From the IMG/VR virus record IMGVR_UViG_2579778884_000013: a stretch of DNA of 39,745 bases. One strand, given 5' to 3'. The stretch comes from a virus (Duplodnaviria > Heunggongvirae > Uroviricota > Caudoviricetes). Both the position numbers and the translations under genes were made by a program. The notes beneath the pieces are model-generated. The model did not search any database. It had not been told where the DNA came from and was given only the letters and a program-made list of their open reading frames with translations. Positions 3,151-39,745 of the stretch are shown here, piece after piece. Numbering within the stretch: the first letter of the stretch is position 1; every line of letters starts with the position of its first letter.

Positions 3151-5613
3151 TCAATTCCCTGTTAATTGCAAAACTTGCTCTTCCAGCTTTTTAACCCTGC
3201 GTCTCATCATCGCAGATTCCAGAATCAGAGCCTCTTCATAACGGATACCGTAACATTCACCAGCCTCGACGGCTTCGCGTACCAGAACCTTTGTCTGTAT
3301 AAGTGGGTAAACTCCTGCAGAATGCTCTTCTTCCGTCACATCCCTGTATTCTGCCGGGGTCTCATTCCACTTGTCATAACAGATAAATGCCAGTCGTGAC
3401 ACATCTATGCCTTCATTCTGAAATACACTGATAACATGCTGCGCAACTGCACCAAAGTGCCATCTTGCTCCGTCTTTACCTTTCACTTCGATCCTGTCAA
3501 GGTACTGGTATGAAACCCATTCCACTCTTTCCCATGCGTCCAGTATTTTCTCATCAATAACCTCTGGAGCAGTCTTGAAACGCGCATCGGACAGCACCGT
3601 AAACGCTGACTGGGTAAATCCCCCCGACCATGCACGACCAGCCAACCCAAGAGAATAAGTATTCGTTGTCGATGGTGTCATGGCTGAATCAGAAAACTGT
3701 ATATATTCTGAATTTCCAGTAGATATTCGAATATTTCCATTTATTAGCGACATAGTGCCTTTAGTATTATCACTATTGAATAATTTCAATTGCGAACTTA
3801 TACCGCCTCCCACAGCCAGAGATACATCGCCTTCAGCAAGCATTCTGAATTTATCTGCAGAAACAAGCGTCTGGTTAGCAAGGTTAAAATATTTAACCCA
3901 CCATTCAAAACGCCCTGACATAGTCCCAACGTACTGACCAAGCGCAGGGACGTGAACAACATTGCTATTTGTAGTGCCGTCTATACTGGAAATACCAGTC
4001 ACCGCTGATGCAGAACTCAGAATATTATTTCTGTCACCCGGATGTTTAATTTCAACAAAGTTCCTGATACACCCTTCCTCGAAGGTAACCACGCCGGAAG
4101 AACTATACATGGGGAATATTGACGCATAATTACTGCGTGCAGCATCTAAGAAACGAATGGTTGTAGATGTCTGCAGATCTCCTGATTCATTTTTCCCATC
4201 ACACCCAGTCATTAGAATATTACTGGCAATATTATTATTTCCCTGAACGGTGACTCCGTGCGCCTGCTTTGCGTCCGATTCAGAGTAATCAACCAGCACA
4301 TTCGAAATCAGGTTACCAGTCCCCTTGCCAACAACTACTGCGGCGTATTTTGGGTTGTTAGCCATTACACTGCTAATGATATTATTCGTTGGGGCAGTTT
4401 CCGTCTCAGTTCCATTGTAAACAACGTGCTTACACTCTTCACCAATAACATTGCTGACAATGTTATATTTTGCTGCTGTTTTAAGTTCCACTGCACCAAA
4501 CTGAGGATAATTTCTGGCTATCACACCATCAATTAGCGTATTTTGCGATGAATCAAAAAGCACACAACCTGCTTTTTTATTATTTGCGAACCCTAAATAC
4601 TCTCCTCTTATATCTCTAACAATGTAACCTGACGGAATACCATTATTCGGATAAGCGATCAAGCTAAATCCTGTTCCTCGCGTATTTGTAAATCTGATAT
4701 TTTTAACCGATACATCATGGCCACCTGAAAATGACACCTGGTGTCCCTGCACACTATCATCTGATTTATTTCCCATAATTGTTAGCGTACTAAGCATGCC
4801 ACCATCGGGCATGTTAAAAACCAGATGATTACCATCTCTGTCATACTGTTTTATCGTTCCCCCACCTGTTCCGTACAAGCCACAACGTGAAAGAGAAACT
4901 AAAGATGTATTGAATACCCCTTCCGGAACAAAAACACTGCTAAACGAATGTAATGATTTTGTAAAAGCATCCTTGTTATCATTTAAGATTCCATTTTGAG
5001 CTCCAAAATCCTTAATGCTGACACCATCACGCATCTTATCCTGGAACGTTCTGTATACCGCTCCAGAACCATACTGAATAAACCAACCAAAACCACCAAT
5101 AACTCCGGCGATTGCAGCATCGACATAATTACGCATTGAGCGATTATTTACAGCGTCCTGCTCAAGTGATGGATCGGCAAGGTTAGATATTCTGTTTTGC
5201 TTTGCATCGTAATATTTTGCAAGCAAAGATGGTTTCATCAATGCACGTCTGAACCACCCAAAACATCGCTGGATCAGCATCGTCAGGTAGTCAAATGCAT
5301 CCTCATGAACTTCGGGGAAAAATTTTCCCTGATTGCGAAGATCAGTCTCCTGCACCACATCAAGCACACGCTCTATCGTGATTCGCCAGCCAGCAGCAAG
5401 CGGCGACGGAAGAACCACTGCACCGCCACTATAAGTTCCCGCCCCTGTTACCGTATAACCAGCATCCAGCACTAGTTTTGTAACGTTACCGTTAAGGTCA
5501 GACACCTGAACAACCAGGTCGGATTTTTTGAAAATACGGAAGGTATACGGAAATGATGTCGTAACGCCGTTACCTGTGTATTCGTTGTGGTCAACTTCGG
5601 TTGAGACCGTCAT
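3151..5613 (-). CDS. Tailspike: T7 gp17-like N-terminal anchor, parallel beta-helix depolymerase-like centre, C-terminal intramolecular chaperone (peptidase S74-like)
   Basis: N-terminus YTGNGVTTSFPYTF...LVVQV resembles T7 tail-fibre N-domain; central repeats with N-x-I/V motifs; C-terminal LSDARFK (Ser about aa 675, nt about 3589-3591) then chaperone-like region; GGAG RBS. Confidence 0.85.
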   Translation of the reverse strand: MTVSTEVDHNEYTGNGVTTSFPYTFRIFKKSDLVVQVSDLNGNVTKLVLDAGYTVTGAGTYSGGAVVLPSPLAAGWRITIERVLDVVQETDLRNQGKFFPEVHEDAFDYLTMLIQRCFGWFRRALMKPSLLAKYYDAKQNRISNLADPSLEQDAVNNRSMRNYVDAAIAGVIGGFGWFIQYGSGAVYRTFQDKMRDGVSIKDFGAQNGILNDNKDAFTKSLHSFSSVFVPEGVFNTSLVSLSRCGLYGTGGGTIKQYDRDGNHLVFNMPDGGMLSTLTIMGNKSDDSVQGHQVSFSGGHDVSVKNIRFTNTRGTGFSLIAYPNNGIPSGYIVRDIRGEYLGFANNKKAGCVLFDSSQNTLIDGVIARNYPQFGAVELKTAAKYNIVSNVIGEECKHVVYNGTETETAPTNNIISSVMANNPKYAAVVVGKGTGNLISNVLVDYSESDAKQAHGVTVQGNNNIASNILMTGCDGKNESGDLQTSTTIRFLDAARSNYASIFPMYSSSGVVTFEEGCIRNFVEIKHPGDRNNILSSASAVTGISSIDGTTNSNVVHVPALGQYVGTMSGRFEWWVKYFNLANQTLVSADKFRMLAEGDVSLAVGGGISSQLKLFNSDNTKGTMSLINGNIRISTGNSEYIQFSDSAMTPSTTNTYSLGLAGRAWSGGFTQSAFTVLSDARFKTAPEVIDEKILDAWERVEWVSYQYLDRIEVKGKDGARWHFGAVAQHVISVFQNEGIDVSRLAFICYDKWNETPAEYRDVTEEEHSAGVYPLIQTKVLVREAVEAGECYGIRYEEALILESAMMRRRVKKLEEQVLQLTGN

Positions 5614-5717
5614 GTTAAATCTCCAGATAGTCGCAGCACCCGTTGCGCCGCATATCTGGTTATTCTATTACCAAAAAAACCATATATGGATAGAAAGACT
5701 GTGAATATGAATAGATA

Positions 5718-5732
5718 TTACCTTTCAGGTAA
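5718..5732. promoter_or_regulatory. Operator-like palindrome TTACC-N5-GGTAA (TTACCTTTCAGGTAA)
   Basis: Perfect 5-bp inverted half-sites with 5-bp spacer, in divergent intergenic region between tailspike and SOS-controlled small gene; same motif recurs at least 11 more times. Confidence 0.5.
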
Positions 5733-5771
5733 TTTGCAAAACGTGCTGGATAGCAAACAAATTATTTGCTA

Positions 5772-5787
5772 CTGTATAAATATACAG
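5772..5787. promoter_or_regulatory. LexA (SOS) box CTGT-N8-ACAG
   Basis: TACTGTATAAATATACAGTTA matches consensus TACTGT(AT)4ACAGTA; 8 nt upstream of ATG 5795 and 23 nt upstream of ATG 5810. Confidence 0.75.
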
Positions 5788-5809
5788 TTATTGCATGGAG
5801 AAGATTAAG

Positions 5810-6067
5810 ATGCAGCAGTATCACTATCCACTGGAAGAGGGATTTACCGAAAGGATTCACACGCCGGGAGGCGTCAGGTCACTGGTGGAGGGATCGCACT
5901 TGATGAAATTACTCCGGGATCTCGATAAGGATGGATTTAATGTCGATGGCCCACTTGCCGAACTGACTGCACTGATTAACTACGTCACCAGCTCACAGAT
6001 GTCTATGCAGGATCTGCAAACACATCTCGACTATTGTGCCGAACAATTACGAAAACAAACCAGATAA
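5810..6067 (+). CDS. Small SOS-controlled protein, paralog of C-terminal domain of adjacent AntA-like protein; candidate small antirepressor
   Basis: GGAG RBS 9 nt upstream of ATG 5810 (alternative ATG 5795 lacks RBS); aligns with C-terminus of 6385..7041 product (LMKLLRDLDKDGFNVDGPLAELT vs [24 protein letters not shown]; DLQTHLDY vs DIQTHAEY). Confidence 0.6.
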   Translation: MQQYHYPLEEGFTERIHTPGGVRSLVEGSHLMKLLRDLDKDGFNVDGPLAELTALINYVTSSQMSMQDLQTHLDYCAEQLRKQTR

Positions 6068-6098
6068 GGTTTGAAATTACCAAATGGAGTGCTTATAT

Positions 6099-6113
6099 TT
6101 ACCTTTGCGGTAA
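6099..6113. promoter_or_regulatory. Operator-like palindrome TTACC-N5-GGTAA (TTACCTTTGCGGTAA)
   Basis: Perfect half-sites; lies between small SOS gene and AntA-like gene. Confidence 0.45.
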
Positions 6114-6203
6114 ATTTACATCGCACTCCTCTTGTGCCATAGTAATCGGGCACTGGCAAAATCCAGTGCCGGGATTGGTCTCCCGGATTACTAAGTGGCG
6201 CAT

Positions 6204-6227
6204 ACCACGCCAGACGTGGTTTTTTTA
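6204..6227 (+). terminator. Rho-independent terminator after small SOS gene
   Basis: Stem ACCACG/CGTGGT with 5-nt loop followed by T7 run. Confidence 0.5.
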
Positions 6228-6384
6228 TGCGTATAGCACAGTCATGCCAGAATTATGGTGGGCTGAATGGGGGTCCGAAAGGACGCCGGTACCACTTAGG
6301 CCGGTAAGACCAACTCCGTTCAGTTCACCACCATCTGATTGGTCTCAGCGGTGGTGATGTAATTCGCTAAGTGGAGACGCCATC

Positions 6385-7041
6385 ATGAACGCTCAACTCA
6401 TCCCCGTATTCAACGGCACTATATCTAACGAAACAGCCCTACTTTGTAATGCCCGCGATCTGCACGCTTTTTTAGGTGTTAAAAAGGTGTTTGCAGCATG
6501 GATTACAAATCGCATATCAGAATACGAATTCATTGAAAATCAAGACTATATTTTGCTTTCCAATTTGGGAAAGCAAACATCTGGTAGAGGCGGCCACAAC
6601 CGCAAAGAGTACCACCTCACCCTTGATACAGCCAAAGAGCTGGCGATGGTCGAGCGTAACGAAAAAGGTCGCCAGGTGCGACGCTACTTCATTGAATGCG
6701 AGAAACGTTTAAGACAACAAGAAACAAAAGTGGAGAAGGTCTTGTCAGGCTTCATGCCCGCCATTATGGAGGCGATCAAGCTGGAAGACAAAAAAGAATA
6801 CAGTGCCCCACTGAAGCCCGGCTACCGCAGCCTGATTCACTCGCCGTCTGGTGTTCTCGGCCTGACGGAGAACTCACTGCTGATGAATCTGCTGAACCAG
6901 TTACAGGACGACGGGCACGACGTATCGGGCGCGGCGGCGGAGCTGACCACCATGTTCTGCTACATCGTTGGTGTGAGCAAATGCCTGCGTGATATCCAGA
7001 CGCACGCGGAGTACATCAACGACAAGGCAGGGTTCTTCTGA
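6385..7041 (+). CDS. AntA-family antirepressor-like protein with C-terminal domain shared with small SOS protein
   Basis: N-terminal region [32 protein letters not shown] resembles AntA/AntB antirepressor domain; GGAG RBS 8 nt upstream. Confidence 0.7.
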
Positions 7042-7085
7042 CGGGCGGCGGCACAGGGATGTGCCTTTAAATAATTCTGTACAGA

Positions 7086-7128
7086 TTGCAGACTGGGGGT
7101 GAATAGCGTACTATTACCTCAAGGGTAA
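7086..7128 (+). promoter_or_regulatory. Candidate sigma70 promoter (TTGCAG-17-TACTAT) with operator-like palindrome TTACCTCAAGGGTAA (7114-7128) at -10/+1
   Basis: -35/-10 hexamers with 17-bp spacer; palindrome starts at last base of -10; 60 nt upstream of 210-aa gene. Confidence 0.45.
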
Positions 7129-7187
7129 GAAAGCATTTTTAATCTTCCCTTCAAAACGCGTCCTGTAGCCAAACATGGGAGGACGAA

Positions 7188-7820
7188 ATGAGAACAAATA
7201 CAACAAGAAAAGCGATGCCATACATTATCCCAGAAGCAGATTTCGATAGAAAACTGAACATGTCTGAGAAGAACACTAGTCACACCGAAAGCTACTTAGC
7301 GAAAGGTGTGGTTGATTTCGTTCTTCCGGGATTCACAACACCTTATGGTTATCGCCTTGTAAAATCTTGTAATGGCGATCATTACAGAATGATTACTACC
7401 AGCGATACTCCAGAAACGGTGTATGCGGTTAAGTTAATCTTTCGGGAAGATATCGTCGAAGCCAAAAGAACATGTACGCAGATCATGGTATGGCGTACGC
7501 CTAATGTTATTCATGACCGTGCTGTTCATGGTTTGCCTCAGATTTTTTTTCAGTTCTTCCTAGAGCAATATGCGATCGTTGTATCTGATGAGCAACAAAC
7601 AATCGATGGGAGAAGATTCTGGGAAAGAATGATTTCTTGGGCTATAAACACCCCAGGATATAATGTATACGTTTCAGATGGCTCTGAAGAAGATAGACCT
7701 CTTAGCTTCATGACATCATGGGATGATTTCTATAGCCAGTGGGCTGATTTCTGTTGGGGCAGTGATAAAGATGTGCATACCCACAGACTACTGGTTATAA
7801 GCAAAGATAAACTGCATTAA
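7188..7820 (+). CDS. Hypothetical 210-aa cytoplasmic protein, no family recognised (orphan accessory gene)
   Basis: Strong GGGAGG RBS 5 nt upstream; own promoter/operator and terminator; appears AT-rich by eye relative to neighbours; no TM or signal peptide. Confidence 0.6.
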   Translation: MRTNTTRKAMPYIIPEADFDRKLNMSEKNTSHTESYLAKGVVDFVLPGFTTPYGYRLVKSCNGDHYRMITTSDTPETVYAVKLIFREDIVEAKRTCTQIMVWRTPNVIHDRAVHGLPQIFFQFFLEQYAIVVSDEQQTIDGRRFWERMISWAINTPGYNVYVSDGSEEDRPLSFMTSWDDFYSQWADFCWGSDKDVHTHRLLVISKDKLH

Positions 7821-7824
7821 TAGA

Positions 7825-7846
7825 AGCCCGCAGCGCGGGCTTTTTT
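7825..7846 (+). terminator. Rho-independent terminator after 210-aa gene
   Basis: GCCCGC-CAGC-GCGGGC stem-loop followed by TTTTTT. Confidence 0.65.
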
Positions 7847-7918
7847 GTGGACGAAACAAAAGTCAGTGCTACACTCATTGACGCCACATTGAGGTGGCTT
7901 ATAGATGGAAATTTCACA

Positions 7919-8080
7919 ATGAAAAAAGCATTTGCTGCACTGTTCGTTTTGTTGTCTCTGGTAGCTTCAACTCAGGCCTTTGCCGGTCGTTGTCAGCACG
8001 ACAGCGACACTGCTGCTGACGGCTCCCGCTGCGGTGGGCGTTCTGCGGATTCCCGCCCGGGTGGCGGTGGCATTCGTTAA
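7919..8080 (+). CDS. Possible small secreted peptide (53 aa) in GC-rich segment; alternatively a structured RNA
   Basis: Signal peptide MKKAFAALFVLLSLVASTQAFA then Gly/Arg/Cys-rich 31 aa; weak RBS; 9-bp hairpin at 7986-8008 inside ORF. Confidence 0.3.
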   Translation: MKKAFAALFVLLSLVASTQAFAGRCQHDSDTAADGSRCGGRSADSRPGGGGIR

Positions 8081-8102
8081 AAACAAGGCCGCGAAAGCGG
8101 CC
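8076..8102 (-). terminator. Rho-independent terminator of lipoprotein gene
   Basis: GGCCGC-GAAA-GCGGCC hairpin (8087-8102) followed on - strand by TTGTTTTTA; perfect palindrome GTGACATGTCAC (8104-8115) overlaps lipoprotein stop. Confidence 0.5.
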
Positions 8103-8111
8103 TGTGACATG

Positions 8112-8492
8112 TCACGCAACGCAATTATTACCGCGCCATGTAACATTTTTAATAATCTTATCAGCACCAAACTCAACGTAAACAGAGCAACTGAAATGGA
8201 GTGTATAACCGCCATCAGTTGTTGCGTATGTGTTTGAATATATAGTATTACCAATTAGATTAGACGTAGTATTATACGTTGTGGTTTGTGGTACGTTATA
8301 ACTACCAGAGCTTGAGTAAACATACACTCTGTTTCCATCTGGAGATGTAAGCTCTCCCTGAGGATACCCCCACTGCTGAACCATTGCGTCTATACTCTGC
8401 CCGCGCCACGTAAGCATATTTCTTTCAAACTGTGCAGCTGACTGGCATCCAACGAGAAGCATAAATCCAAAAATCAAAAATACTTTTCTCAT
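8112..8492 (-). CDS. Lipoprotein of unknown function (Ser/Thr/Asn/Tyr-rich mature domain); candidate lysogenic-conversion or superinfection-exclusion gene
   Basis: Signal peptide MRKVFLIFGFMLLVGC with lipobox LVGC; AGGGG RBS 5 nt upstream of ATG 8492; own terminator; encoded within accessory island between late genes. Confidence 0.6.
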   Translation of the reverse strand: MRKVFLIFGFMLLVGCQSAAQFERNMLTWRGQSIDAMVQQWGYPQGELTSPDGNRVYVYSSSGSYNVPQTTTYNTTSNLIGNTIYSNTYATTDGGYTLHFSCSVYVEFGADKIIKNVTWRGNNCVA

Positions 8493-8539
8493 AATTACCC
8501 CTATCATGGAAAAACAGCACCAATCCACAAATTAACTAG

Positions 8540-8728
8540 TTATTTTATTATTCTTCCGAACAATACAATTCCTAATACTACAAAGCCGAACCATGCCGCT
8601 GCACGCAACAGAGATTCCAATTGAAACCCATTTTTATCAAAATGTATGAATAGCATAAAAACGCTGCACATATTAGTACAATAAAAGTTATTTGAACCAT
8701 CATATCTCCTTTTATTGCGGAGTGACAT
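8540..8728 (-). CDS. Possible small membrane protein (62 aa)
   Basis: Start overlaps stop of upstream ejection-protein gene; C-terminal hydrophobic segment AAAWFGFVVLGIVLFG; AT-rich; weak support. Confidence 0.3.
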   Translation of the reverse strand: MSLRNKRRYDGSNNFYCTNMCSVFMLFIHFDKNGFQLESLLRAAAWFGFVVLGIVLFGRIIK

Positions 8729-11186
8729 CCTGTGGTCGCCACCAGTATGTCTGGTTAAACTCTTTCTTCGAACGTTGCTCCATTTTACGCAAATAGCCTG
8801 GTGAAAAATACTCCTGCATCTGGTTAAAGATCATGTGATCGAGAGCCGCCTTCAAGTACCAGAGATTCGCACCAGGCATCAAACCTTTCCCCAGCTTCAC
8901 CAGATCACCACCAGTCTGCTCACTCTTCCCTTCCACAGCATTTAACGGTATGCCCTGAGCAATCTTCACTACGTCATCAACCAGACCAGCTACCGGGCCA
9001 AGCATCGACGCCAGCGCGCCGCTTCCGTACCTAGTGTGATCTGACAATAAAAAGTCACCGTAAAGGCCAAGACCACCACCTTTCAGTAGAGCACCAAGCC
9101 AAAATTTAGCAGCATCTTCTCCTGTCATCTCGCGAGGATTACGACCAGACGCAAGGTCGTTAAGTTGCTGCGACAAAGCGCCAAGAATGGTCGTACTGGC
9201 AATAAACGTCGCAATATATGCCGCACGCCCACCAGCAGACGGCATACCCATAGCGCGTGACCAGTGACGCATAACCACCGAGATAGGGAACGATTTAAAC
9301 AGGAAAACACTTCTCGTTAATTCACCTTTCCATGTTCCACGCTGAATACCAGAACCGGTTATCAGTTGCTCACGTGCTCCCGGTGTAATAACAGCCATAT
9401 CAACTTCTTCAGTTACGGCACCGAGCAGTTTACGCATTGCCTCAAATTTCACGCGTTCAGGCTCACCAAGATGTTTAACTGCTGAATCAGGGATACGCAT
9501 AATGCTTTCCGGTGTCAGCATCGTATTATTGCCGTTCCCCCAGTCCTCCTGTTGCGCCAGCTTCCATACGCTCCAGTCTGTGTCAGTAATCCCTTTGCTT
9601 TTCAGGATACGAAAATCAGAATCATCGAGGCTACGAAGGTCTGGTGTCCGTGACACTACTTCTCCCAAGCTTCCCATCATGGTTACGCCATAGGCGCGCT
9701 TGTGCGCATCTGACCATGCTGTAAGCCCACTGGCACGCATTACCGCCGTTGCAGCCCAACGAGACACAGACGGCCCCATATTATCCATCGCCCAGCGGTT
9801 AACGCTGCCAAGTAGAGATTCCATCGCCAGACCAGCGCGGCGCGCCCGCGCAAGTTCTGTACGGTTCGTTGGGTCCATAGCTTCAAGCTGGTTGCGGAAT
9901 AACTGGTTCATTGGAAGGTTGGTAACCTTCGCAGACAGATACATGGTTCCAAGATCAGAGAACGATGACAGCAACGCGGATCCGAGTCTGCTGGCAACCA
10001 GCCAGTTGCGGATATTGTCAGACCATCGCGCGATGTGCGGATTCGCTACAGGCTGTGTCTTTCCGGAAATAAAGTTGTACAGATTCTCTGTGTTGTTCGC
10101 CAGCCGCTCGACTTTACCGGTTTTACTCGGGTTAGCTGTTGCCGTTTCTGCCTTCACCTGATCAAGAAGAGAGCGGAAAACATGATCGGGGTTTGGGCCA
10201 TATGTTTCCACCAGTGCAATATCTTTACTGATACCTTCCAGGTGACCGACCATGATTTCCCATAGAGAGCGATCGCCATAAAGTTGCTGATATTGAAGAT
10301 AGGAATCTGCATCTTTGAAATGTATCTGTCGTGATGCATTACCACGGTTAGCACGTGCGCCGGAAATTCGCATTCCGGTATCAGTAAGCTTATTCAACCC
10401 ACCAGTAGCGATCGTGTTATAAGCCTCTCCAAGAAATGCAGACAACTCGGCATCGTTCATCAGTTGTCCATCGGCTCGGGTATAATATTTGCGATCCAGC
10501 TTACCTATAACATCGCTAACCCATTTATCTTTTGATACCGCCCCAACCTTTTCCATAGAATGATGTTGAGGGATCCCCCAGTTTTCGAGATAGCCAATGT
10601 CCCCACCAGCATCATTAAACCGGCGGCGCAGCAGCTCTGTAACTTCTCTCCACGCCTTAGCACCTTTTCTTGCTTTAGCATTGCCAGTATTTTGCCCCCG
10701 CATTTCATATACCAGGTCACGTACGCCAGCTTCATCTTCAAACAGACCAAAAAAGCGAGGATCAACTGCTTCGAATGCCTCCTGCAATTGACTCAATGCA
10801 TAATCACGGGTGGCTTTTGTTCTGGATTCAACAGAGAGGAAATTCGATTTACCGTCTGCATTAAAAGCAATAGTACGGTTAAGAGCGCCAAGTTTCCCAT
10901 CAGCCCCTTGATAGCTATTGATAAATTTATCCAATCTCTGACGTGCGGCTATAGTGAGGGCCACACGACGTTTCTTTAATGCCGCTTCTCGCTGTAATTC
11001 TTCAGATGCCAATTGTGCTGCACGATATAGCCGCTCTGATTCGGAAAGTTGTCTCCACGACATCGGGTCATCACGAGCAATAGAGCGCATATTTCGATAA
11101 ATGCGGTCTTCAATGTTCTGTATTTCTCGCGCCGTTAACGTGCGCTGCGCCGCCTGCTGGACCGCTTGTATACATTCCTGTCTCAT
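8712..11186 (-). CDS. Large internal virion (ejection/core) protein, T7 gp16-position
   Basis: 824 aa; AGAGG RBS; C-terminal hydrophobic/Gly-rich segments; position between tail-tube genes and tailspike. Confidence 0.6.
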   Translation of the reverse strand: MRQECIQAVQQAAQRTLTAREIQNIEDRIYRNMRSIARDDPMSWRQLSESERLYRAAQLASEELQREAALKKRRVALTIAARQRLDKFINSYQGADGKLGALNRTIAFNADGKSNFLSVESRTKATRDYALSQLQEAFEAVDPRFFGLFEDEAGVRDLVYEMRGQNTGNAKARKGAKAWREVTELLRRRFNDAGGDIGYLENWGIPQHHSMEKVGAVSKDKWVSDVIGKLDRKYYTRADGQLMNDAELSAFLGEAYNTIATGGLNKLTDTGMRISGARANRGNASRQIHFKDADSYLQYQQLYGDRSLWEIMVGHLEGISKDIALVETYGPNPDHVFRSLLDQVKAETATANPSKTGKVERLANNTENLYNFISGKTQPVANPHIARWSDNIRNWLVASRLGSALLSSFSDLGTMYLSAKVTNLPMNQLFRNQLEAMDPTNRTELARARRAGLAMESLLGSVNRWAMDNMGPSVSRWAATAVMRASGLTAWSDAHKRAYGVTMMGSLGEVVSRTPDLRSLDDSDFRILKSKGITDTDWSVWKLAQQEDWGNGNNTMLTPESIMRIPDSAVKHLGEPERVKFEAMRKLLGAVTEEVDMAVITPGAREQLITGSGIQRGTWKGELTRSVFLFKSFPISVVMRHWSRAMGMPSAGGRAAYIATFIASTTILGALSQQLNDLASGRNPREMTGEDAAKFWLGALLKGGGLGLYGDFLLSDHTRYGSGALASMLGPVAGLVDDVVKIAQGIPLNAVEGKSEQTGGDLVKLGKGLMPGANLWYLKAALDHMIFNQMQEYFSPGYLRKMEQRSKKEFNQTYWWRPQDVTPQ

Positions 11187-24697: not shown

Positions 24698-24787
24698 ATC
24701 AATGACTCCGTACGCAATTAAATTATTACCAATTTAACCACATATGTTTTATTTATCGTAGAAGGTTGACATTTAACGCGCTAATTA

Positions 24788-24802
24788 TTACCTTTCAGGT
24801 AA
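24788..24802. promoter_or_regulatory. Operator-like palindrome TTACC-N5-GGTAA (TTACCTTTCAGGTAA, identical to 5718 site)
   Basis: Lies between - strand late operon start and + strand tRNA unit; TTGACA hexamer at 24766-24771. Confidence 0.45.
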
Positions 24803-25124
24803 CTAAAGAGTTCATTCCGGTTACTAACCTGACTGGCTTGTCGTTAAATTGAACAGGTGGAGTGAGCTTTTATTTTGAGCAGTACGGCGTATGGCACATG
24901 CGCCGATAGCGGTCTGGATACGTTTAAGGGGCACCCTCCCTTGCTCGGGCAAACGAACCAGGTAGCCGGAATGTGCAAGTCGAGCGGTTTTATTCCGCGC
25001 ACGGGGATTCACCATCCCGGCGATTCGGTGTGACGCCTCGGAAGAGACGAGGGTACAACGATGAGAGCATTTATGGAGCCGCGACAAAGTGTGGCGCCTT
25101 AACAGGCTAAGTGCTCTCAGCGTT

Positions 25125-25201
25125 GTGGCATTAGCTCAGTTGGACAGAGCAACCGCCTTCTAAGCGGTTGGTCGCAGGTTCGAATCCTGCATGCCACGCC
25201 A
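25125..25201 (+). tRNA. tRNA-Arg (anticodon UCU, reads AGA)
   Basis: Cloverleaf read directly: acceptor GTGGCAT/ATGCCAC, D-arm GCTC-AGTTGGACA-GAGC, anticodon arm ACCGC-CTTCTAA-GCGGT, T-arm GCAGG-TTCGAAT-CCTGC, discriminator G, encoded CCA. Confidence 0.85.
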
Positions 25202-25244
25202 GAATCACGCCTAAGGACCGTGATGCCAGAAGTTCCAGGGGGTT

Positions 25245-25287
25245 GGCGGTGATGGTTTCCCTTGAAGGACTATCACCGCCCTTTTTA
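25245..25287 (+). terminator. Rho-independent terminator after tRNA
   Basis: 9-bp stem GGCGGTGAT/ATCACCGCC around 18-nt loop, followed by CTTTTT. Confidence 0.55.
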
Positions 25288-25364
25288 CAGCAGGACGCCA
25301 TTGCGATGACTTCATGCTGTAAACCAGTACAGCCACGGAAGGCATAACTCATTGCTTCCAGTTC

Positions 25365-25388
25365 GCCCGGTTCGCCGGGCATTTTTTT
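25365..25388 (+). terminator. Strong hairpin with U-tract abutting RBS of Gp49-like gene (terminator or attenuator)
   Basis: GCCCGG-TTCG-CCGGGC (UUCG tetraloop) followed by ATTTTTTT, then AAGGTGAG RBS and ATG 25400. Confidence 0.55.
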
Positions 25389-25399
25389 AAGGTGAGATT

Positions 25400-25756
25400 A
25401 TGAACGACCAGCAAATCGAAAAAGAAATCGTTGAGAAAGGCAAAACCGCTCCGCGAGTTACGCCTCAATATATCGAAAGCATCATTCTTGAAGAGCATTT
25501 CTTTACTGCTTATGACGGCATTCGTGCTGCCAATATGGGCGTTGGCGATTCATGGACAGCGCATAAATCTACAGACCTCCTGACTTTCTGCGTATTGGTA
25601 CTGAAGAATGGCTTCACCGTCACCGGAGAGAGTGCCTGTGCAAGTCCGGAAAATTTTGATGCAGAAATTGGTCGGAAGATTGCCCGGCAGAATGCTGTAA
25701 ACAAAATCTGGATGCTCGAAGGTTACTTGCTGAAGCAGAAGTTAAGCGAGCAATAA
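25400..25756 (+). CDS. Gp49-like phage protein (N4 Gp49 / Sf6 gene 66 family), function unknown
   Basis: Motifs TAPRVTP, LKNGFTVTGES, WMLEGYLL recalled from this family; encoded antisense to flanking late genes. Confidence 0.55.
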   Translation: MNDQQIEKEIVEKGKTAPRVTPQYIESIILEEHFFTAYDGIRAANMGVGDSWTAHKSTDLLTFCVLVLKNGFTVTGESACASPENFDAEIGRKIARQNAVNKIWMLEGYLLKQKLSEQ

Positions 25757-25846
25757 CACCGTGGCATGTCACAAACAGCAAGCCTATGAACTGGCTTTGT
25801 TTTATCCTCACCAGAAGATATCAACGACATTATCCCCACCAGCGAA

Positions 25847-27322
25847 TTAAGCATAAGGGTCATAATCCGTTATGGCCCTTCCCTGCTGGCTTTGCTGTCC
25901 TGGTATATTTATGCGTTTCGAGACCGGGAAAGCAAACGTCAGCAGTAGCGCATCGCCTTTACCAGGAGAACGCCCAAGACGCTCTTTGATATCTTCCTTC
26001 GGTTCGATAACGATTTTACCGTCCACACGAACTTTGTACTCTGCCGCAGACAGGTCGTCCGCTGTTTCCTGGTCATCCAGCATGCCGCCCAGCCTCAGCC
26101 ATGTCTTGCATGAGTTGAACATCTCCCCACGCTTGTTGAGCATCTGCGGGTCAGTAGACGCGCCACCGAACGGAACAAGTTGCCATGTGCGCCCCCAACC
26201 ATCACCGATTGACTTCAGACCGGTACCGTAACCGAAGTCGATGAACACCGCGTCAGCCTGATACTGGTCTTCAAAGTCAGCGATACGCTTCGCCATAATC
26301 AGATCGTCGGTAGTCTTGTTGCCAGTCCACAGCACCTTACTGTGTAGCCCCTGCCGCAGGTATATCACCGCGTCATCAACGCCTGAATATGCCGGGTCAA
26401 CACCGATTATCACCGGAGCATGCGCCACCTGCGCAGCGGTTACCACCCGTTTCATTGCCTCATCAGTAAGACCGGTAGGGATAAACTGCAATTCAGATGC
26501 ATCAGGGAATATGCCGCGCACACGGATTTTAACGAAGTCGCTGTCTTCCCCGTAGTCATCGACCCATTTCTGCAACTGCTGTTTGTTAGTGCCTTCCACC
26601 GTCCGGCTGTCAATCTGCGCAGTTTTCCAGCGGTGTTTATATTTGCGGAAACATTCGCGGAAACGCCCGGTGTTACGTGTAGGGTTTCCGAACGCCACCC
26701 AGATAATCTCAGTGTCTTCGTCCGTAAGCGCACCCTCAGCAACTTCCCACACCAGATCCGCAATGTTCGACGCTTCATCGAATACCACGATGATGCGTTT
26801 GCGCTCGTTGTGTAGTCCGGCGAATGCCTCAGTGTTGTGCTCAGACCAGGGGATTGCGTCAGCTCGCCACCGCTTGTCGTGCCCAGGATCATTGCTGTAC
26901 ATCGCGGTAGCGGTACAGGTAAACCAGTCTTTCGTGATAGCAAGGTTCGACCACTTGATAATTTCCGGCCAGGTCTTCGTTTGTAGCTGGTTTTCGGTGT
27001 TGGCGGTCACCACGACCTTACAATCCTCGCAAGTGGACATGCCCCAGTTGATCAGCATTGAGATGAATGCGGATTTACCAATACCGTGACCAGAAGCACG
27101 TGCCAGCATAAGCGGCTGATAGCGCGTCTCTGGATTCTGCAGGTGATCACGTATCTCTCGGAACGCATCAGCCTGCCACTGACGTGGACCGGTGGCATGT
27201 GCCAGTTCAGTCCCCTCTTCCCCCCACGGGAACGCATAGATGGCATAGCCAAGCGGATCGTGAGTGAACCCTGCAATATCCTCGATCAACTGCTCTTCAG
27301 GAGATAACGCTGTATCTGTCAC
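25847..27322 (-). CDS. Terminase large subunit
   Basis: 491 aa; ATPase-like N-half and nuclease-like C-half with acidic motifs; GTG start overlapping small-subunit stop. Confidence 0.85.
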   Translation of the reverse strand: MTDTALSPEEQLIEDIAGFTHDPLGYAIYAFPWGEEGTELAHATGPRQWQADAFREIRDHLQNPETRYQPLMLARASGHGIGKSAFISMLINWGMSTCEDCKVVVTANTENQLQTKTWPEIIKWSNLAITKDWFTCTATAMYSNDPGHDKRWRADAIPWSEHNTEAFAGLHNERKRIIVVFDEASNIADLVWEVAEGALTDEDTEIIWVAFGNPTRNTGRFRECFRKYKHRWKTAQIDSRTVEGTNKQQLQKWVDDYGEDSDFVKIRVRGIFPDASELQFIPTGLTDEAMKRVVTAAQVAHAPVIIGVDPAYSGVDDAVIYLRQGLHSKVLWTGNKTTDDLIMAKRIADFEDQYQADAVFIDFGYGTGLKSIGDGWGRTWQLVPFGGASTDPQMLNKRGEMFNSCKTWLRLGGMLDDQETADDLSAAEYKVRVDGKIVIEPKEDIKERLGRSPGKGDALLLTFAFPVSKRINIPGQQSQQGRAITDYDPYA

Positions 27323-27915: not shown

Positions 27916-28033
27916 AACCACCGTGGTAATAGTTACCGTTGTGGTAATAGTACCATGCAAAATAAAGCCGCCATAGTTGGCGGCAGTATTCAAAACCCAT
28001 CAAATTCATCATGCATAATCTACTCGTGACATG

Positions 28034-28372
28034 TCACACTATTAATTTCGTTTCATGCCAGCCTTTAGTCACCCAGCATTGCGAGTCACCATTACACGGG
28101 CATGAATTAACTGGAACTCTCTCGCCGCACTTACCGCAACATTTTCTGCTGATCGATTTTATACGCCCGCGCACGCGTGCATCATCCTGGCGGATCAGTA
28201 ACGCTATATACTCACCAAATTCGTAAGGCGCACGCCCGGGGCGACGCGTGGCACAGTTACGCTCCAGCATTTCAATTTCCTGAGCATCAAGCACAATTTC
28301 CAGCTTACGCACACCAGATGCAGCTTGTCTGGCTCTCTGAGCGGCTTTGCGCTCTGCTGCTGATTTAGCCAT
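28034..28372 (-). CDS. Hypothetical protein with C-terminal Cys cluster (possible zinc ribbon)
   Basis: C-terminus CCGKCGERVPVNSCPCNGDSQC; basic helical N-terminus; ATG 28372 (track start is TTG). Confidence 0.45.
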   Translation of the reverse strand: MAKSAAERKAAQRARQAASGVRKLEIVLDAQEIEMLERNCATRRPGRAPYEFGEYIALLIRQDDARVRGRIKSISRKCCGKCGERVPVNSCPCNGDSQCWVTKGWHETKLIV

Positions 28373-28646
28373 CAATATTTACCTTTATCGCGAACACATT
28401 TACCGGTTTATCGCCGATGTGCGGATGTGTGATTGTCTTGATTTCATATCCGTCATACGGAACATCAATTCTACGGCTGGAATCGTCGCGCTTCGGATAT
28501 CCCTTTGTGATAATCAGGCGGTCATATTCCCGGAACATAATTCGCTTATTCCAGTAGTCATTACACAGGCGATACTCTTCCGTTTTATCTCCGCGAATCA
28601 TGGCATCGAAGTATTCACCTTTGACGGCAAGTTGCAGGTTAGCCAT
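28365..28646 (-). CDS. Hypothetical protein (possibly ASCH/PUA-like fold)
   Basis: ATG 28646 with GGAGGTG RBS; 1-nt overlap with upstream gene; fold assignment unverified. Confidence 0.45.
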   Translation of the reverse strand: MANLQLAVKGEYFDAMIRGDKTEEYRLCNDYWNKRIMFREYDRLIITKGYPKRDDSSRRIDVPYDGYEIKTITHPHIGDKPVNVFAIKVNIDG

Positions 28647-38494: not shown

Positions 38495-39745
38495 TTATTC
38501 CCCCGCCATCCACTTCTCAAACTTCGACGGGGAGAACGGAATCAGATCCGTATGCTCCCCGTTAATCCAGGAATCAATCATATCGGCCCACTGCTGCAAC
38601 ATGTAGGCGCGCTGTCTGGCGTATTCCGCTTTGTTATATACGGCGCGCACACCTTTCTGCTCATGTGCCAGAGCCTTTTCAATCCAGTCTGAAGGATAAC
38701 CAGCCTCATGCAACAACGTACTGGCTGTACGGCGCATATCGTGTACGGTGAAGCCCTGAATATGCTCACCATCTTCATTTATTATTTTCACCGTTCTGTC
38801 GATCAGAGAGTTCAGCGCGGCATTAGATAATGGCTTCCGGAAATTGTAACGACCAGGAACCAGATATTCACTTCCACCAGCGCACATCTGCAACCCAACC
38901 AATATATCCTGTGCCTGTTTAGGCAGGTAAATAACGTGCGCCCGGCTTCCCTTCATGCGGTCTGAAGGAATTGTCCATGTCCATTTTTTAAAATCTATTT
39001 CATCCCACGTTGCATTGGTGAATTCGCCTTTACGAACCATAGTGATAAGCACCAGCTTTAAAGCCATTTTCATAGTGCCCATAGCACCAATGGCATCCAG
39101 CGTGCGGAAGAACAGACCAATTTCTTCTGGTGTCAGTGTTCGCTCTCGTGGTTTAAATATGGCGATAGACGAAGGTTTAATGTCAGCCGCAGGATTAAAC
39201 AAACCATGACCACGGTCATTGGCATGACGGTATACGCTGCTGATGATCTCCCTGGCCTGCACTGCTGTTGCCCGGCCGCCGCGTTCGACAATCCGGTCAC
39301 ACAAATCACGAACCATCGATGTGGTAATTTCAGTCATCATTTTGTTGCCAAGAACCGGAAGTATGTCACGGTCGATCACCACCTGCTTCATTGCGCGGGT
39401 ACTGTCAGCTAGGATGACATGTTTCATATAACTGTCGGTATGTACCGCAAACGTCTCGGCACCACGAATCTTTTTGATACCGTCACGTTTAGCCGCAGCC
39501 GGTGACTGGCCTGCTTTAAGCAGCTTCTTTGCAGCAATCAGTTCTTCTCGCGCTTCTGCCAGGCTGATACCGTCACGCCCATACTGCCCGATTACCAGTG
39601 TTTCGCGGCGACCGTTGATACGGTAGTCATAGCGAAACGAGACCGTGCCTGACGTAAGCACAGCTACATACAGCCCGTCACGATCGGAGACCTTGTACAG
39701 TTTGTCCTGCGGCTTGAGGTTTTTTAATTTTGTATCGGTAAGCAC
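38495..39745 (-). CDS. int: Tyrosine integrase (P4-type); 5' end abuts window edge
   Basis: N-terminus LTDTKLKNLKP typical of P4-like integrases; C-terminal catalytic residues (HDMRRT ... AHE ... VYNKAEY); first codon at window edge is GTG. Confidence 0.9.
   Translation of the reverse strand: MLTDTKLKNLKPQDKLYKVSDRDGLYVAVLTSGTVSFRYDYRINGRRETLVIGQYGRDGISLAEAREELIAAKKLLKAGQSPAAAKRDGIKKIRGAETFAVHTDSYMKHVILADSTRAMKQVVIDRDILPVLGNKMMTEITTSMVRDLCDRIVERGGRATAVQAREIISSVYRHANDRGHGLFNPAADIKPSSIAIFKPRERTLTPEEIGLFFRTLDAIGAMGTMKMALKLVLITMVRKGEFTNATWDEIDFKKWTWTIPSDRMKGSRAHVIYLPKQAQDILVGLQMCAGGSEYLVPGRYNFRKPLSNAALNSLIDRTVKIINEDGEHIQGFTVHDMRRTASTLLHEAGYPSDWIEKALAHEQKGVRAVYNKAEYARQRAYMLQQWADMIDSWINGEHTDLIPFSPSKFEKWMAGE

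Follow-up and report, generated by a model that had tools for sequence, protein, structure and literature searches.

Two independently inherited genes for exported proteins and a recurrent palindrome at the convergence of two transcription units in an epsilon15/phiV10-like phage genome

The viral record IMGVR_UViG_2579778884_000013, whose whole length of 39,745 nucleotides (nt) is called the window here, belongs to Uetakevirus (the epsilon15/phiV10-like phages) and is the genome or prophage of a temperate podovirus of Escherichia coli. An earlier note made from its letters alone had singled out a lipoprotein gene (8112..8492, minus strand), a neighboring GC-rich segment with a small open reading frame (ORF; 7919..8080, plus strand), and a palindrome at the stop codon of the lipoprotein gene. 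We find that this interval is the meeting point of two convergent transcription units, that each unit ends with an accessory gene for an exported protein, and that inheritance of the one does not depend on the other. The region as a whole is ordinary phage accessory cargo encoding two envelope proteins, and the features first noticed there are largely real; what did not survive is the picture of an autonomous lipoprotein gene divergent from the late operon, with a terminator of its own, beside a possible structured RNA. The palindrome had been under-read, since it is a genome-wide conserved element and not a local one.

The late genes occupy the minus strand from ~28 kb down to 8.1 kb and encode TerS, TerL, the portal, capsid, and tail proteins, and three large ejection-type proteins of 837, 600, and 824 amino acids (aa). 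On the plus strand, an accessory block (5795-8080) is read away from the tailspike gene (3151..5613, minus strand) and toward the end of the late operon. Positions 7700-8800 share 99% identity with the Escherichia phages vB_EcoP_ZX5 and Phi05_1387 B and match phiV10, TL-2011b, and phiv142-3 in part. As first supposed, both ORFs are conserved genes for exported proteins without a named family, the lipoprotein belonging to phrog_3716 (annotated as of unknown function) and the small product matching phrog_14503 at 2e-40 and also phrog_3117. Both genes have the present-or-absent distribution expected of phage accessory genes, and their distributions do not coincide: the small ORF is present at 10 of the 31 lipoprotein loci and absent from the other 21, and complete E. 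coli genomes carry the small ORF in 532 of 5426 cases versus 29 of 5426 for the lipoprotein gene. On these figures, we rejected the idea that the two genes form a functional pair. The literature search returned nothing on the 12-nt palindrome, on a Uetakevirus lipoprotein, or on the "transmembrane anchored protein" label that some databases give to homologs of the small ORF, and the paper describing vB_EcoP_ZX5 discusses neither gene.

In E. coli, Salmonella, Klebsiella, and Proteus prophages, the lipoprotein gene is always the last gene of the late operon, following the three large ejection-protein genes. In the Salmonella relatives its start codon lies 10 nt after the stop codon of the 824-aa gene, and its Shine-Dalgarno sequence overlaps that stop (CAA TAA GGA TAT AGA ATG), which points to cotranscription and probably coupled translation with the late genes. 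The gene therefore does not appear to be autonomous, and it does not diverge from the late operon: it has the same orientation and is the operon's final member, and it is the small ORF that faces the operon, converging on it rather than diverging from it. The terminator attributed to the lipoprotein gene exists, as a hairpin AGGCCGC-TTTC-GCGGCCT at 8086..8103 on the minus strand with a T-run at 8076-8085, just 3' of the small ORF, but it is not that gene's own. It is the conserved terminator of the late operon, shared by phiV10 and epsilon15, which have no lipoprotein gene; in phiV10, the same palindrome and hairpin directly follow the small membrane gene p21, and in IMG/VR contigs the same hairpin stands after many different cargo genes.

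Between the last ejection-protein gene and the palindrome lies a slot for cargo. IMG/VR contigs show at least nine different 3' gene ends next to this palindrome and terminator, and every slot product with a sequence examined is an envelope protein. Elsewhere, the slot holds the small transmembrane proteins epsilon15 gp18 and phiV10 p21, a 98-aa polytopic membrane protein, or a 186-aa secreted protein; in the window, it holds the 126-aa lipoprotein together with a candidate 41-codon membrane-protein ORF (MMVQITFIVLICAAFLCYSYILIK...; 8578..8703, minus strand). The latter has a strong AAGGAG adjoining the stop codon of the 824-aa gene, a hydrophobic N terminus, and the same position as gp18, p21, and the small transmembrane proteins of other prophages; it is unannotated in related records and had zero family matches. 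The Salmonella form of the lipoprotein is indexed in 930 blocks of the collection. In Marinobacter, distant relatives of the lipoprotein stand alone among small cassette-like genes beside an integrase, and Vibrio has them in an array of like kind; such stand-alone relatives in integron-like arrays suggest that the lipoprotein works without a dedicated phage partner. A weak relative in a Burkholderia phage occupies the same intermodule region on the opposite strand.

The lipoprotein itself carries a signal peptide (residues 1 to 15, MRKVFLIFGFMLLVG preceding Cys16) that ends in the lipobox LVGC, with Cys16 encoded at 8445-8447 and Gln at the +2 position. The textbook lipobox was borne out by the invariance of Cys16 in 29 sequences, and the good ribosome-binding site by an AGGGG Shine-Dalgarno sequence 5 nt before the ATG. 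This start is backed by 28 aligned homologs, all of which begin at the M[KR]K of the 126-aa protein; a 138-aa ORF with a GTG start was set aside on these grounds and because the annotated gene in related records has 381 nt. The lipid-attachment profile LPAM_1 matches 20 of the 29 members (best E = 1e-5). Homologs numbered 37 in a single-sequence search and 258 in a profile search, mostly lipoproteins of ~125 aa from Enterobacterales, Proteus, Vibrio, Marinobacter, and others, and tblastn retrieved four phage records with the gene, all annotated as hypothetical. The invariant positions are Cys16, W29, G31, G42-Y43-P44, G53-N54-x-x-Y57-x-Y59, P68, G95, Cys102, and G121-N-N-Cys124. By the E. coli +2 rule, a residue other than Asp at +2 fits outer-membrane sorting, and because the residue here is Gln, the protein is predicted to be lipidated at Cys16 and delivered by the Lol system to the inner leaflet of the outer membrane.

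Sequence profiles place the lipoprotein in no described domain family: the 29 members showed nothing in Pfam beyond the lipid-attachment motif, and SmpA_OmlA (PF04355) was absent at E <= 10. A confident structural model, in turn, assigns it to the BamE/β-lactamase inhibitor protein (BLIP)-like fold class, with the alpha-alpha-beta-beta-beta arrangement of BamE. The highest fold-comparison figure was 9.3, for the CAP-associated N-terminal domain of 4ifa, followed by 7.5 for YjgB (DUF4309), 7.0 for the BLIP-like protein 3d4e, 6.6 each for BamE and the type VI immunity protein BtiO, and 6.4 for OsmE. Foldseek agreed weakly, giving BamE chains a probability of up to 0.99, yet with E > 0.1; SmpA/OmlA-type phage lipoproteins were also among the matches in a viral structure library, and a profile search of PDB sequences gave a marginal match to 4h0a, of the same domain (E = 0.017). 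Like BamE, OsmE, BLIP, and the CAP-associated domain, the modeled lipoprotein packs two N-terminal helices on an antiparallel sheet; like BamE and OsmE, it would be an outer-membrane lipoprotein; and it weakly shares with 4h0a a motif of the type W-x-G...G-x-P...G-N-x-V-Y-V-Y. It differs from the BamE/OsmE/BLIP class in its low identity (10 to 20%) and the lack of a match to SmpA_OmlA or a related Pfam family in any of the 29 members, in a sheet extended by long Thr/Asn/Ser/Tyr-rich hairpins (residues 55 to 108), in a conserved Cys102/Cys124 pair that BamE does not have, and in being phage- or cassette-borne instead of a core gene. Thus, on the model, the lipoprotein shares the BamE fold, and by sequence it is not a member of the BamE family.

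The second accessory gene, the small ORF at 7919..8080, has 53 codons. For this GC-rich segment the earlier note had left open a choice between a small secreted Gly/Arg/Cys-rich peptide and a structured RNA, and the pattern of variation among 57 homologs (from Escherichia, Shigella, Klebsiella, Citrobacter, Cronobacter, Franconibacter, Salmonella, Pectobacterium, and Dickeya) speaks for the peptide. Over 55 aligned codons, the first, second, and third positions vary at 28, 22, and 53 codons, respectively; in the 25-codon mature core, compared across genera, they vary at 8, 6, and 25. The ratio of nonsynonymous to synonymous substitution (dN/dS) averages 0.07 in the core, where dS is 1.66 and near saturation, and is 0.19 in the signal peptide, and the serine codons alternate between the AGC and TCN families. 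Judged by these substitution patterns, the small ORF is a protein gene under protein-level selection. The hydrophobic N-terminal 22 residues are free to vary, and the stretch C-x-H-D-x-D-T-A-A-D-G-S-R-C-G-G-R-S-A-D-S-R-P-G-G is invariant or nearly so.

That the segment acts instead as a structured noncoding RNA, with the ORF fortuitous, had in its favor a local 9-bp hairpin and the high GC content of a single sequence. The hairpin at 7986-8008 is indeed present, with eight Watson-Crick pairs and one G-U pair, but it is not conserved, as homologs keep 0 to 6 of the 9 pairs. Rfam gave no match within 7919-8110, either for the whole window at the gathering threshold or for 7700-8800 at a permissive E <= 10. 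In folding, the segment does not surpass shuffled sequence (z = -1.39; 21 of 200 shuffles at least as stable), and the covariance check proposed for it returned a consensus structure of -6.7 kcal/mol with 0 compensatory pairs. Together with the variation of all 25 core third positions around fixed amino acids, these results refute a structured RNA as the primary explanation and make it very improbable. The GC-rich island is real, peaking at 0.62-0.66 over 7950-8099 against ~0.40-0.45 in the flanks, and is accounted for by the Gly, Arg, Ala, Pro, Asp, and Cys codons of the mature peptide and by the terminator.

The N terminus of the small ORF product is a typical Sec signal (7919-7984), with MKK, a hydrophobic core, and AFA followed by G, and cleavage probably occurs after AFA. 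Export through Sec would then release a 31-residue periplasmic peptide in which the two invariant cysteines may close a 12-residue disulfide loop. When both accessory proteins were searched against Pfam, NCBIfam, and PADLOC, the only matches were weak ones to MarB- or LPAM_1-type profiles over the signal peptides.

The small ORF travels in a conserved module of ~290 bp, from ~7825 to 8116-8120, that is shared with other E. coli Uetakevirus prophages and is found at 95 to 100% conservation (7825-8116) in those 532 complete E. coli genomes (~10%) with varying neighbors. Upstream of the module elsewhere are a YafO-family toxin gene, DUF4760, DUF2335, and other genes; downstream are the antirepressor gene ant (in TL-2011b), different cargo genes, or none. 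The small ORF is absent from phiV10 and epsilon15. At the left edge of the module lies the intrinsic terminator of the upstream accessory gene (7188..7820), at 7824..7846 on the plus strand (AAGCCCGC-AGC-GCGGGCTT, then a T-run), and the small ORF has a counterpart of this terminator ahead of it in Klebsiella, Buttiauxella, Rahnella, and Rouxiella. A putative -10 hexamer, TACACT (7870..7875, plus strand), contains T81, A82, and T86 (TAnnnT), which are invariant in 11 upstream regions of different genera and form the only invariant part of these regions outside the start region; the -35 element of this predicted promoter is weak or unclear. An alternative -35/-10 pair, TTGACG-16-TATAGA at 7878-7905, was dropped, as TAnnnT is the phylogenetically invariant element. 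Where the mRNA is predicted to begin, a leader stem-loop, GCCAC-ATTGAG-GTGGC (7883..7898, plus strand), recurs at the same place in most of 13 leaders with stems that differ by genus (GCCGTC/GATGGC, GCCGC/GCGG, GCTGC/GCAG, and CCACC/GGTGG), a modest support by covariation. The arrangement suggests a promoter followed by a 5'-terminal stem-loop, which may stabilize the mRNA.

A moron is a transcription unit that stands by itself, with a promoter and a terminator of its own and an atypical GC content (Juhala et al. 2000, summarized in PMC3594210). The small ORF unit fits this definition because it is present or absent among relatives, is flanked by terminators, has the TAnnnT element, and has a GC content of 0.62-0.66 against ~0.42 in its flanks. 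It is therefore the small ORF, and not the lipoprotein gene, that by its layout appears as the self-contained unit, a classical moron.

By its motif, the small ORF peptide is a free-standing copy of a widespread extracytoplasmic mini-domain, C-x4-D-x-A-[AS]-D-G-S-R-C-G-G-R-[AS]-A-x-x-R-P-G-G. A motif scan of genomes found it in Rhizobiales, Paraburkholderia, Tolumonas, one Polyangiaceae genome, and many Cyanobacteria, and a HMMER scan yielded 488 clusters (50% identity) at E <= 1e-3; one checked member of the latter, an 805-aa protein with 11 apparent repeats (P0141), was a false positive consisting of chitin-binding CBM_14 repeats. Profile and PDB sequence searches returned zero Pfam, NCBIfam, or PDB entries covering the motif. 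The mini-domain is extracytoplasmic in every architecture examined: it lies directly after a signal peptide, at the extreme C terminus of lipoproteins or secreted proteins (ending mostly in R-P-G-G-x), or between a signal peptide and a transmembrane helix. Among 91 longer members, 4 carry SH3_3, 2 carry PG_binding_1, and 1 carries a NucA/NucB DNase domain. At six Mesorhizobium/Rhizobium loci (L024, L025, L032, L033, L037, and L050; ~5250-6007), a gene for a mini-domain lipoprotein is followed by an SNase-family nuclease gene; these loci look plasmid-borne, and L024 has RepB and resolvase/recombinase genes nearby.

The contexts of the peptide family resemble those of the Excalibur domain (PF05901), which we take to be an extracellular calcium-binding module. 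Both are very small extracytoplasmic modules bracketed by cysteines, with an acidic D...DG-x-x-C stretch, and both occur alone or attached to secreted nucleases or cell-wall-binding domains, here represented by the NucA/NucB fusion, the SNase neighbor, SH3_3, and PG_binding_1. The motifs differ, DxDxDGxxCE in Excalibur against D-x-A-[AS]-D-G-S-R-C-G-G-R...R-P-G-G in the peptide family, and the Pfam Excalibur profile found nothing in the peptide (E <= 1), in 8 diverse relatives (E <= 10), or in 10 longer relatives (E <= 1), so that an assignment to Excalibur is unsupported. The peptide is probably a small, disulfide-stapled periplasmic module that occurs here as a free peptide.

The perfect palindrome that was reported to overlap the lipoprotein stop codon does so: the 12-bp sequence GTGACATGTCAC occupies 8104..8115, and its TGA is the stop codon at 8112-8114. 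Palindromes of this length are not unusual in the window (8 found versus 10.8 +/- 3.6 expected), and the nonrandom feature is the recurrence of this exact 12-mer, of which, by simple arithmetic, ~0.002 occurrences are expected in 40 kb for any one given sequence. A second exact copy (28026..28037) overlaps the TGA stop codon of a gene for a 113-aa Cys-rich, regulator-like protein (28034..28375), upstream of a terminator-like hairpin and terS. A third copy with one mismatch, GTGGCATGTCAC (25761..25772), begins 5 nt after the stop codon of an Sf6-gene-66-like gene (25400..25756) and is again followed by a terminator-like hairpin. Epsilon15 has three exact copies (2142, 19517, and 39612), and phiV10 has two (2262 and 19493) plus a one-mismatch copy that spans the ends of the record, with ...GTGA at one end and CATGTTAC... 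at the other. The epsilon15 copy at 39612 corresponds to that at 28026 in the window, and the copies at 2142 in epsilon15 and 2262 in phiV10 correspond to that at 25761. In IMG/VR relatives, as in epsilon15 and phiV10, the copy at this last, terL-side position is exact.

Across genomes, the copies mark three equivalent sites, the 3' ends of the regulator gene upstream of terS, of the Sf6-gene-66-like gene beside terL, and of the late operon. The order at each site is gene end, palindrome, 0 to 45 nt, and intrinsic terminator, and the gene often stops on the palindrome's TGA. The 12-mer is exact at 35 of 83 loci, including Salmonella, Klebsiella, and Buttiauxella, despite diverged flanking coding sequences and terminators, and mosaic homology breakpoints fall at its edge (8116-8120). 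An operator for the prophage repressor was considered and rejected, as the annotated repressor sites of epsilon15 are ATTACC-N5-GGTAAT, and a CRP or LexA site was rejected because spacing and sequence are unfit. There are two candidate readings: the palindrome may be the site of a dimeric phage protein tied to termination or read-through, or it may be a conserved recombination boundary.

Several observations stand beside the palindrome. The 113-aa protein (28034-28375, minus strand) has a C-terminal Cys cluster (CCGKCG...CPCNGDSQC) and no Pfam match; it is the counterpart of epsilon15 gp49 and phiV10 p55, both annotated as "transcriptional regulator," and its gene is the last before terS. The Sf6-gene-66-like gene, of the N4 Gp49/Sf6 gene 66 family, lies with a transfer RNA (25125-25198) in an island between the portal gene and terL (24700-25850), whose plus-strand genes are opposite to the late genes. 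Some unrelated viral contigs in IMG/VR with the 14-mer (L113, L132, L142, L147, and L161) show clusters of GTGACA/GTCAC repeats around it; these look iteron-type and may point to a family of binding proteins.

A further reading, composed of two distinct claims, is offered only tentatively. In it, the 53-codon ORF would be the free-standing, phage-borne form of an undescribed, widespread, disulfide-stapled mini-domain (~488 clusters at 50% identity in Alpha-, Beta-, and Gammaproteobacteria and Cyanobacteria) with a defined ligand, such as a metal ion, peptidoglycan, or a secreted nuclease. The palindrome would be an undescribed cis-element of Uetakevirus, bound by a phage regulator, for which the 113-aa Cys-rich protein is a candidate; its role would be to govern termination or read-through at the three operon ends that it occupies and to fix the boundary of the cargo slot.

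As to what the two accessory proteins do, we favor on balance, with modest confidence, a layout of two units that bring together a peptide moron and an outer-membrane lipoprotein, most likely acting by interference at the level of the envelope. The plus-strand unit (~7824-8103) would consist of the insulating upstream terminator, the predicted promoter, the leader hairpin, the 53-codon ORF, and the downstream hairpin. The minus-strand unit would be the late operon for virion and ejection proteins, in which the slot between the 824-aa gene and the fixed palindrome-plus-terminator is variously filled with envelope proteins. The lipoprotein would serve as a protein-binding module anchored in the outer membrane, binding an envelope protein and thereby blocking the entry of other phages (superinfection exclusion) or shielding progeny virions from cell debris. 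For the small peptide, our proposal commits itself solely to export and a periplasmic site of action.

Superinfection exclusion by the lipoprotein is plausible by analogy and from the uniformly envelope-directed cargo of the slot. HK97 gp15 and the Cor proteins are exclusion proteins encoded by morons (PMC3594210), and the lipoprotein genes found inside the structural cluster of mEpimmI coliphages exclude phages according to the outer-membrane receptor used (PMC11893012). Like the lipoprotein studied here, HK97 gp15, Cor (of HK022, N15, and phi80), and Lpp021/Lpp010 (of mEpimmI phages) are accessory proteins of small size directed to the envelope; their genes lie within a structural (tail or ejection) cluster or at its end and occur in only some of the relatives. 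Cor and the mEpimmI proteins are, moreover, lipoproteins (PMC3594210, PMC11893012), as here. In contrast to these likenesses, no sequence similarity to any of them was detected, the host phage here is a podovirus that binds O-antigen by its tailspike, and the lipoprotein gene lacks an established promoter of its own.

Several points weigh against the favored interpretation. In Pfam, NCBIfam, and PADLOC searches, the lipoprotein was unrelated by sequence to Cor, Llp, Bor/Iss, and TraT, and its sole PHROG is phrog_3716. Classical prophage exclusion needs expression in the lysogen, and the coupling to the late operon seen in the Salmonella relatives argues for late expression instead; upstream of the gene, the window has no more than a weak promoter-like site (8 of 12 matches). 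Phages of the epsilon15/phiV10 type adsorb to O-antigen via the tailspike, and we know of no outer-membrane protein receptor that the lipoprotein could mask. For the peptide, several of the 57 homologs are labeled "transmembrane anchored protein" in their source databases, which would mean an uncleaved signal anchor as the alternative to a released peptide, and AlphaFold2 models the mature part with low confidence (predicted local distance difference test values of 43 to 63), the signal helix being confident.

Two other explanations of the same genes are live rivals of envelope-level interference. The lipoprotein, the peptide, or both might be host-fitness factors of lysogenic conversion unrelated to phage defense, for instance, conferring serum or stress resistance as lambda Bor does, or acting in outer-membrane biogenesis or stress signaling through BamE/OsmE-like interactions. 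Gut and clinical Enterobacterales carry both in their prophages as accessory genes for envelope-targeted products, the lipoprotein has a fold common to BamE and OsmE, and the peptide domain is common in nonphage chromosomal and plasmid genes, fused to SH3b, peptidoglycan-binding, or nuclease domains; morons, too, often encode such factors (PMC3594210). Yet the lipoprotein has no sequence membership in Bor/Iss, TraT, BamE, or OsmE, and its link to the late operon does not sit well with constitutive expression in the lysogen, and we consider a host-fitness role unlikely.

The lipoprotein might also be a periplasmic inhibitor or immunity protein whose BLIP/BamE-like surface neutralizes an incoming enzyme, much as T4 Spackle acts on the gp5 lysozyme; the target would be the lytic-transglycosylase domain of the ejected 836-aa protein of superinfecting relatives or a toxin of the type VI secretion or colicin type. 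The fold class is common to β-lactamase inhibitor proteins and the Bacteroides type VI immunity protein BtiO, the gene directly follows the ejection-protein genes, one of which has a transglycosylase domain in relatives, and the stand-alone relatives in integron-like arrays fit a one-protein immunity system. BamE and OsmE, however, score about equal to the inhibitors, and the lipoprotein keeps 79% identity between the phages of E. coli and those of Klebsiella, although their last ejection genes encode proteins of 824 versus 921 aa; we regard this role as unlikely.

Farther from the two genes, the accessory block has features of its own. Rfam matches above the gathering score identify an isrK Hfq-binding small RNA (6150-6226, plus strand; 67.7 bits) and a C4 antisense RNA (6251-6335, plus strand; 61.2 bits) directly upstream of an AntA-type antirepressor gene (6385..7041), an arrangement that suggests P1/P7-style antisense control of the antirepressor in the Uetakevirus accessory block. 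The 210-aa accessory protein encoded upstream of the small ORF module (7188-7820, plus strand) matches phrog_1349, annotated as of unknown function, over its full length (3e-113) and had zero matches in Pfam, NCBIfam, and PADLOC.

The points of interest in this region are thus a mini-domain family that has not been modeled, a BamE/BLIP-like lipoprotein with a strictly conserved position after the ejection genes, and a palindrome that occurs three times per genome. About 1 in 10 complete E. coli genomes carries the small-peptide module, and the lipoprotein is common in Salmonella prophages. The small peptide offers a genetically tractable entry to a mini-domain lacking a Pfam, NCBIfam, or PDB model, and the thrice-repeated palindrome by terminators is a testable lead to the way in which transcription units are bounded or regulated in these phages. 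Should the lipoprotein prove to be an exclusion factor, none but O-antigen modification would have been described before it in the epsilon15/phiV10 group, and it could help to trace a secondary receptor of these podoviruses or their ejection step.

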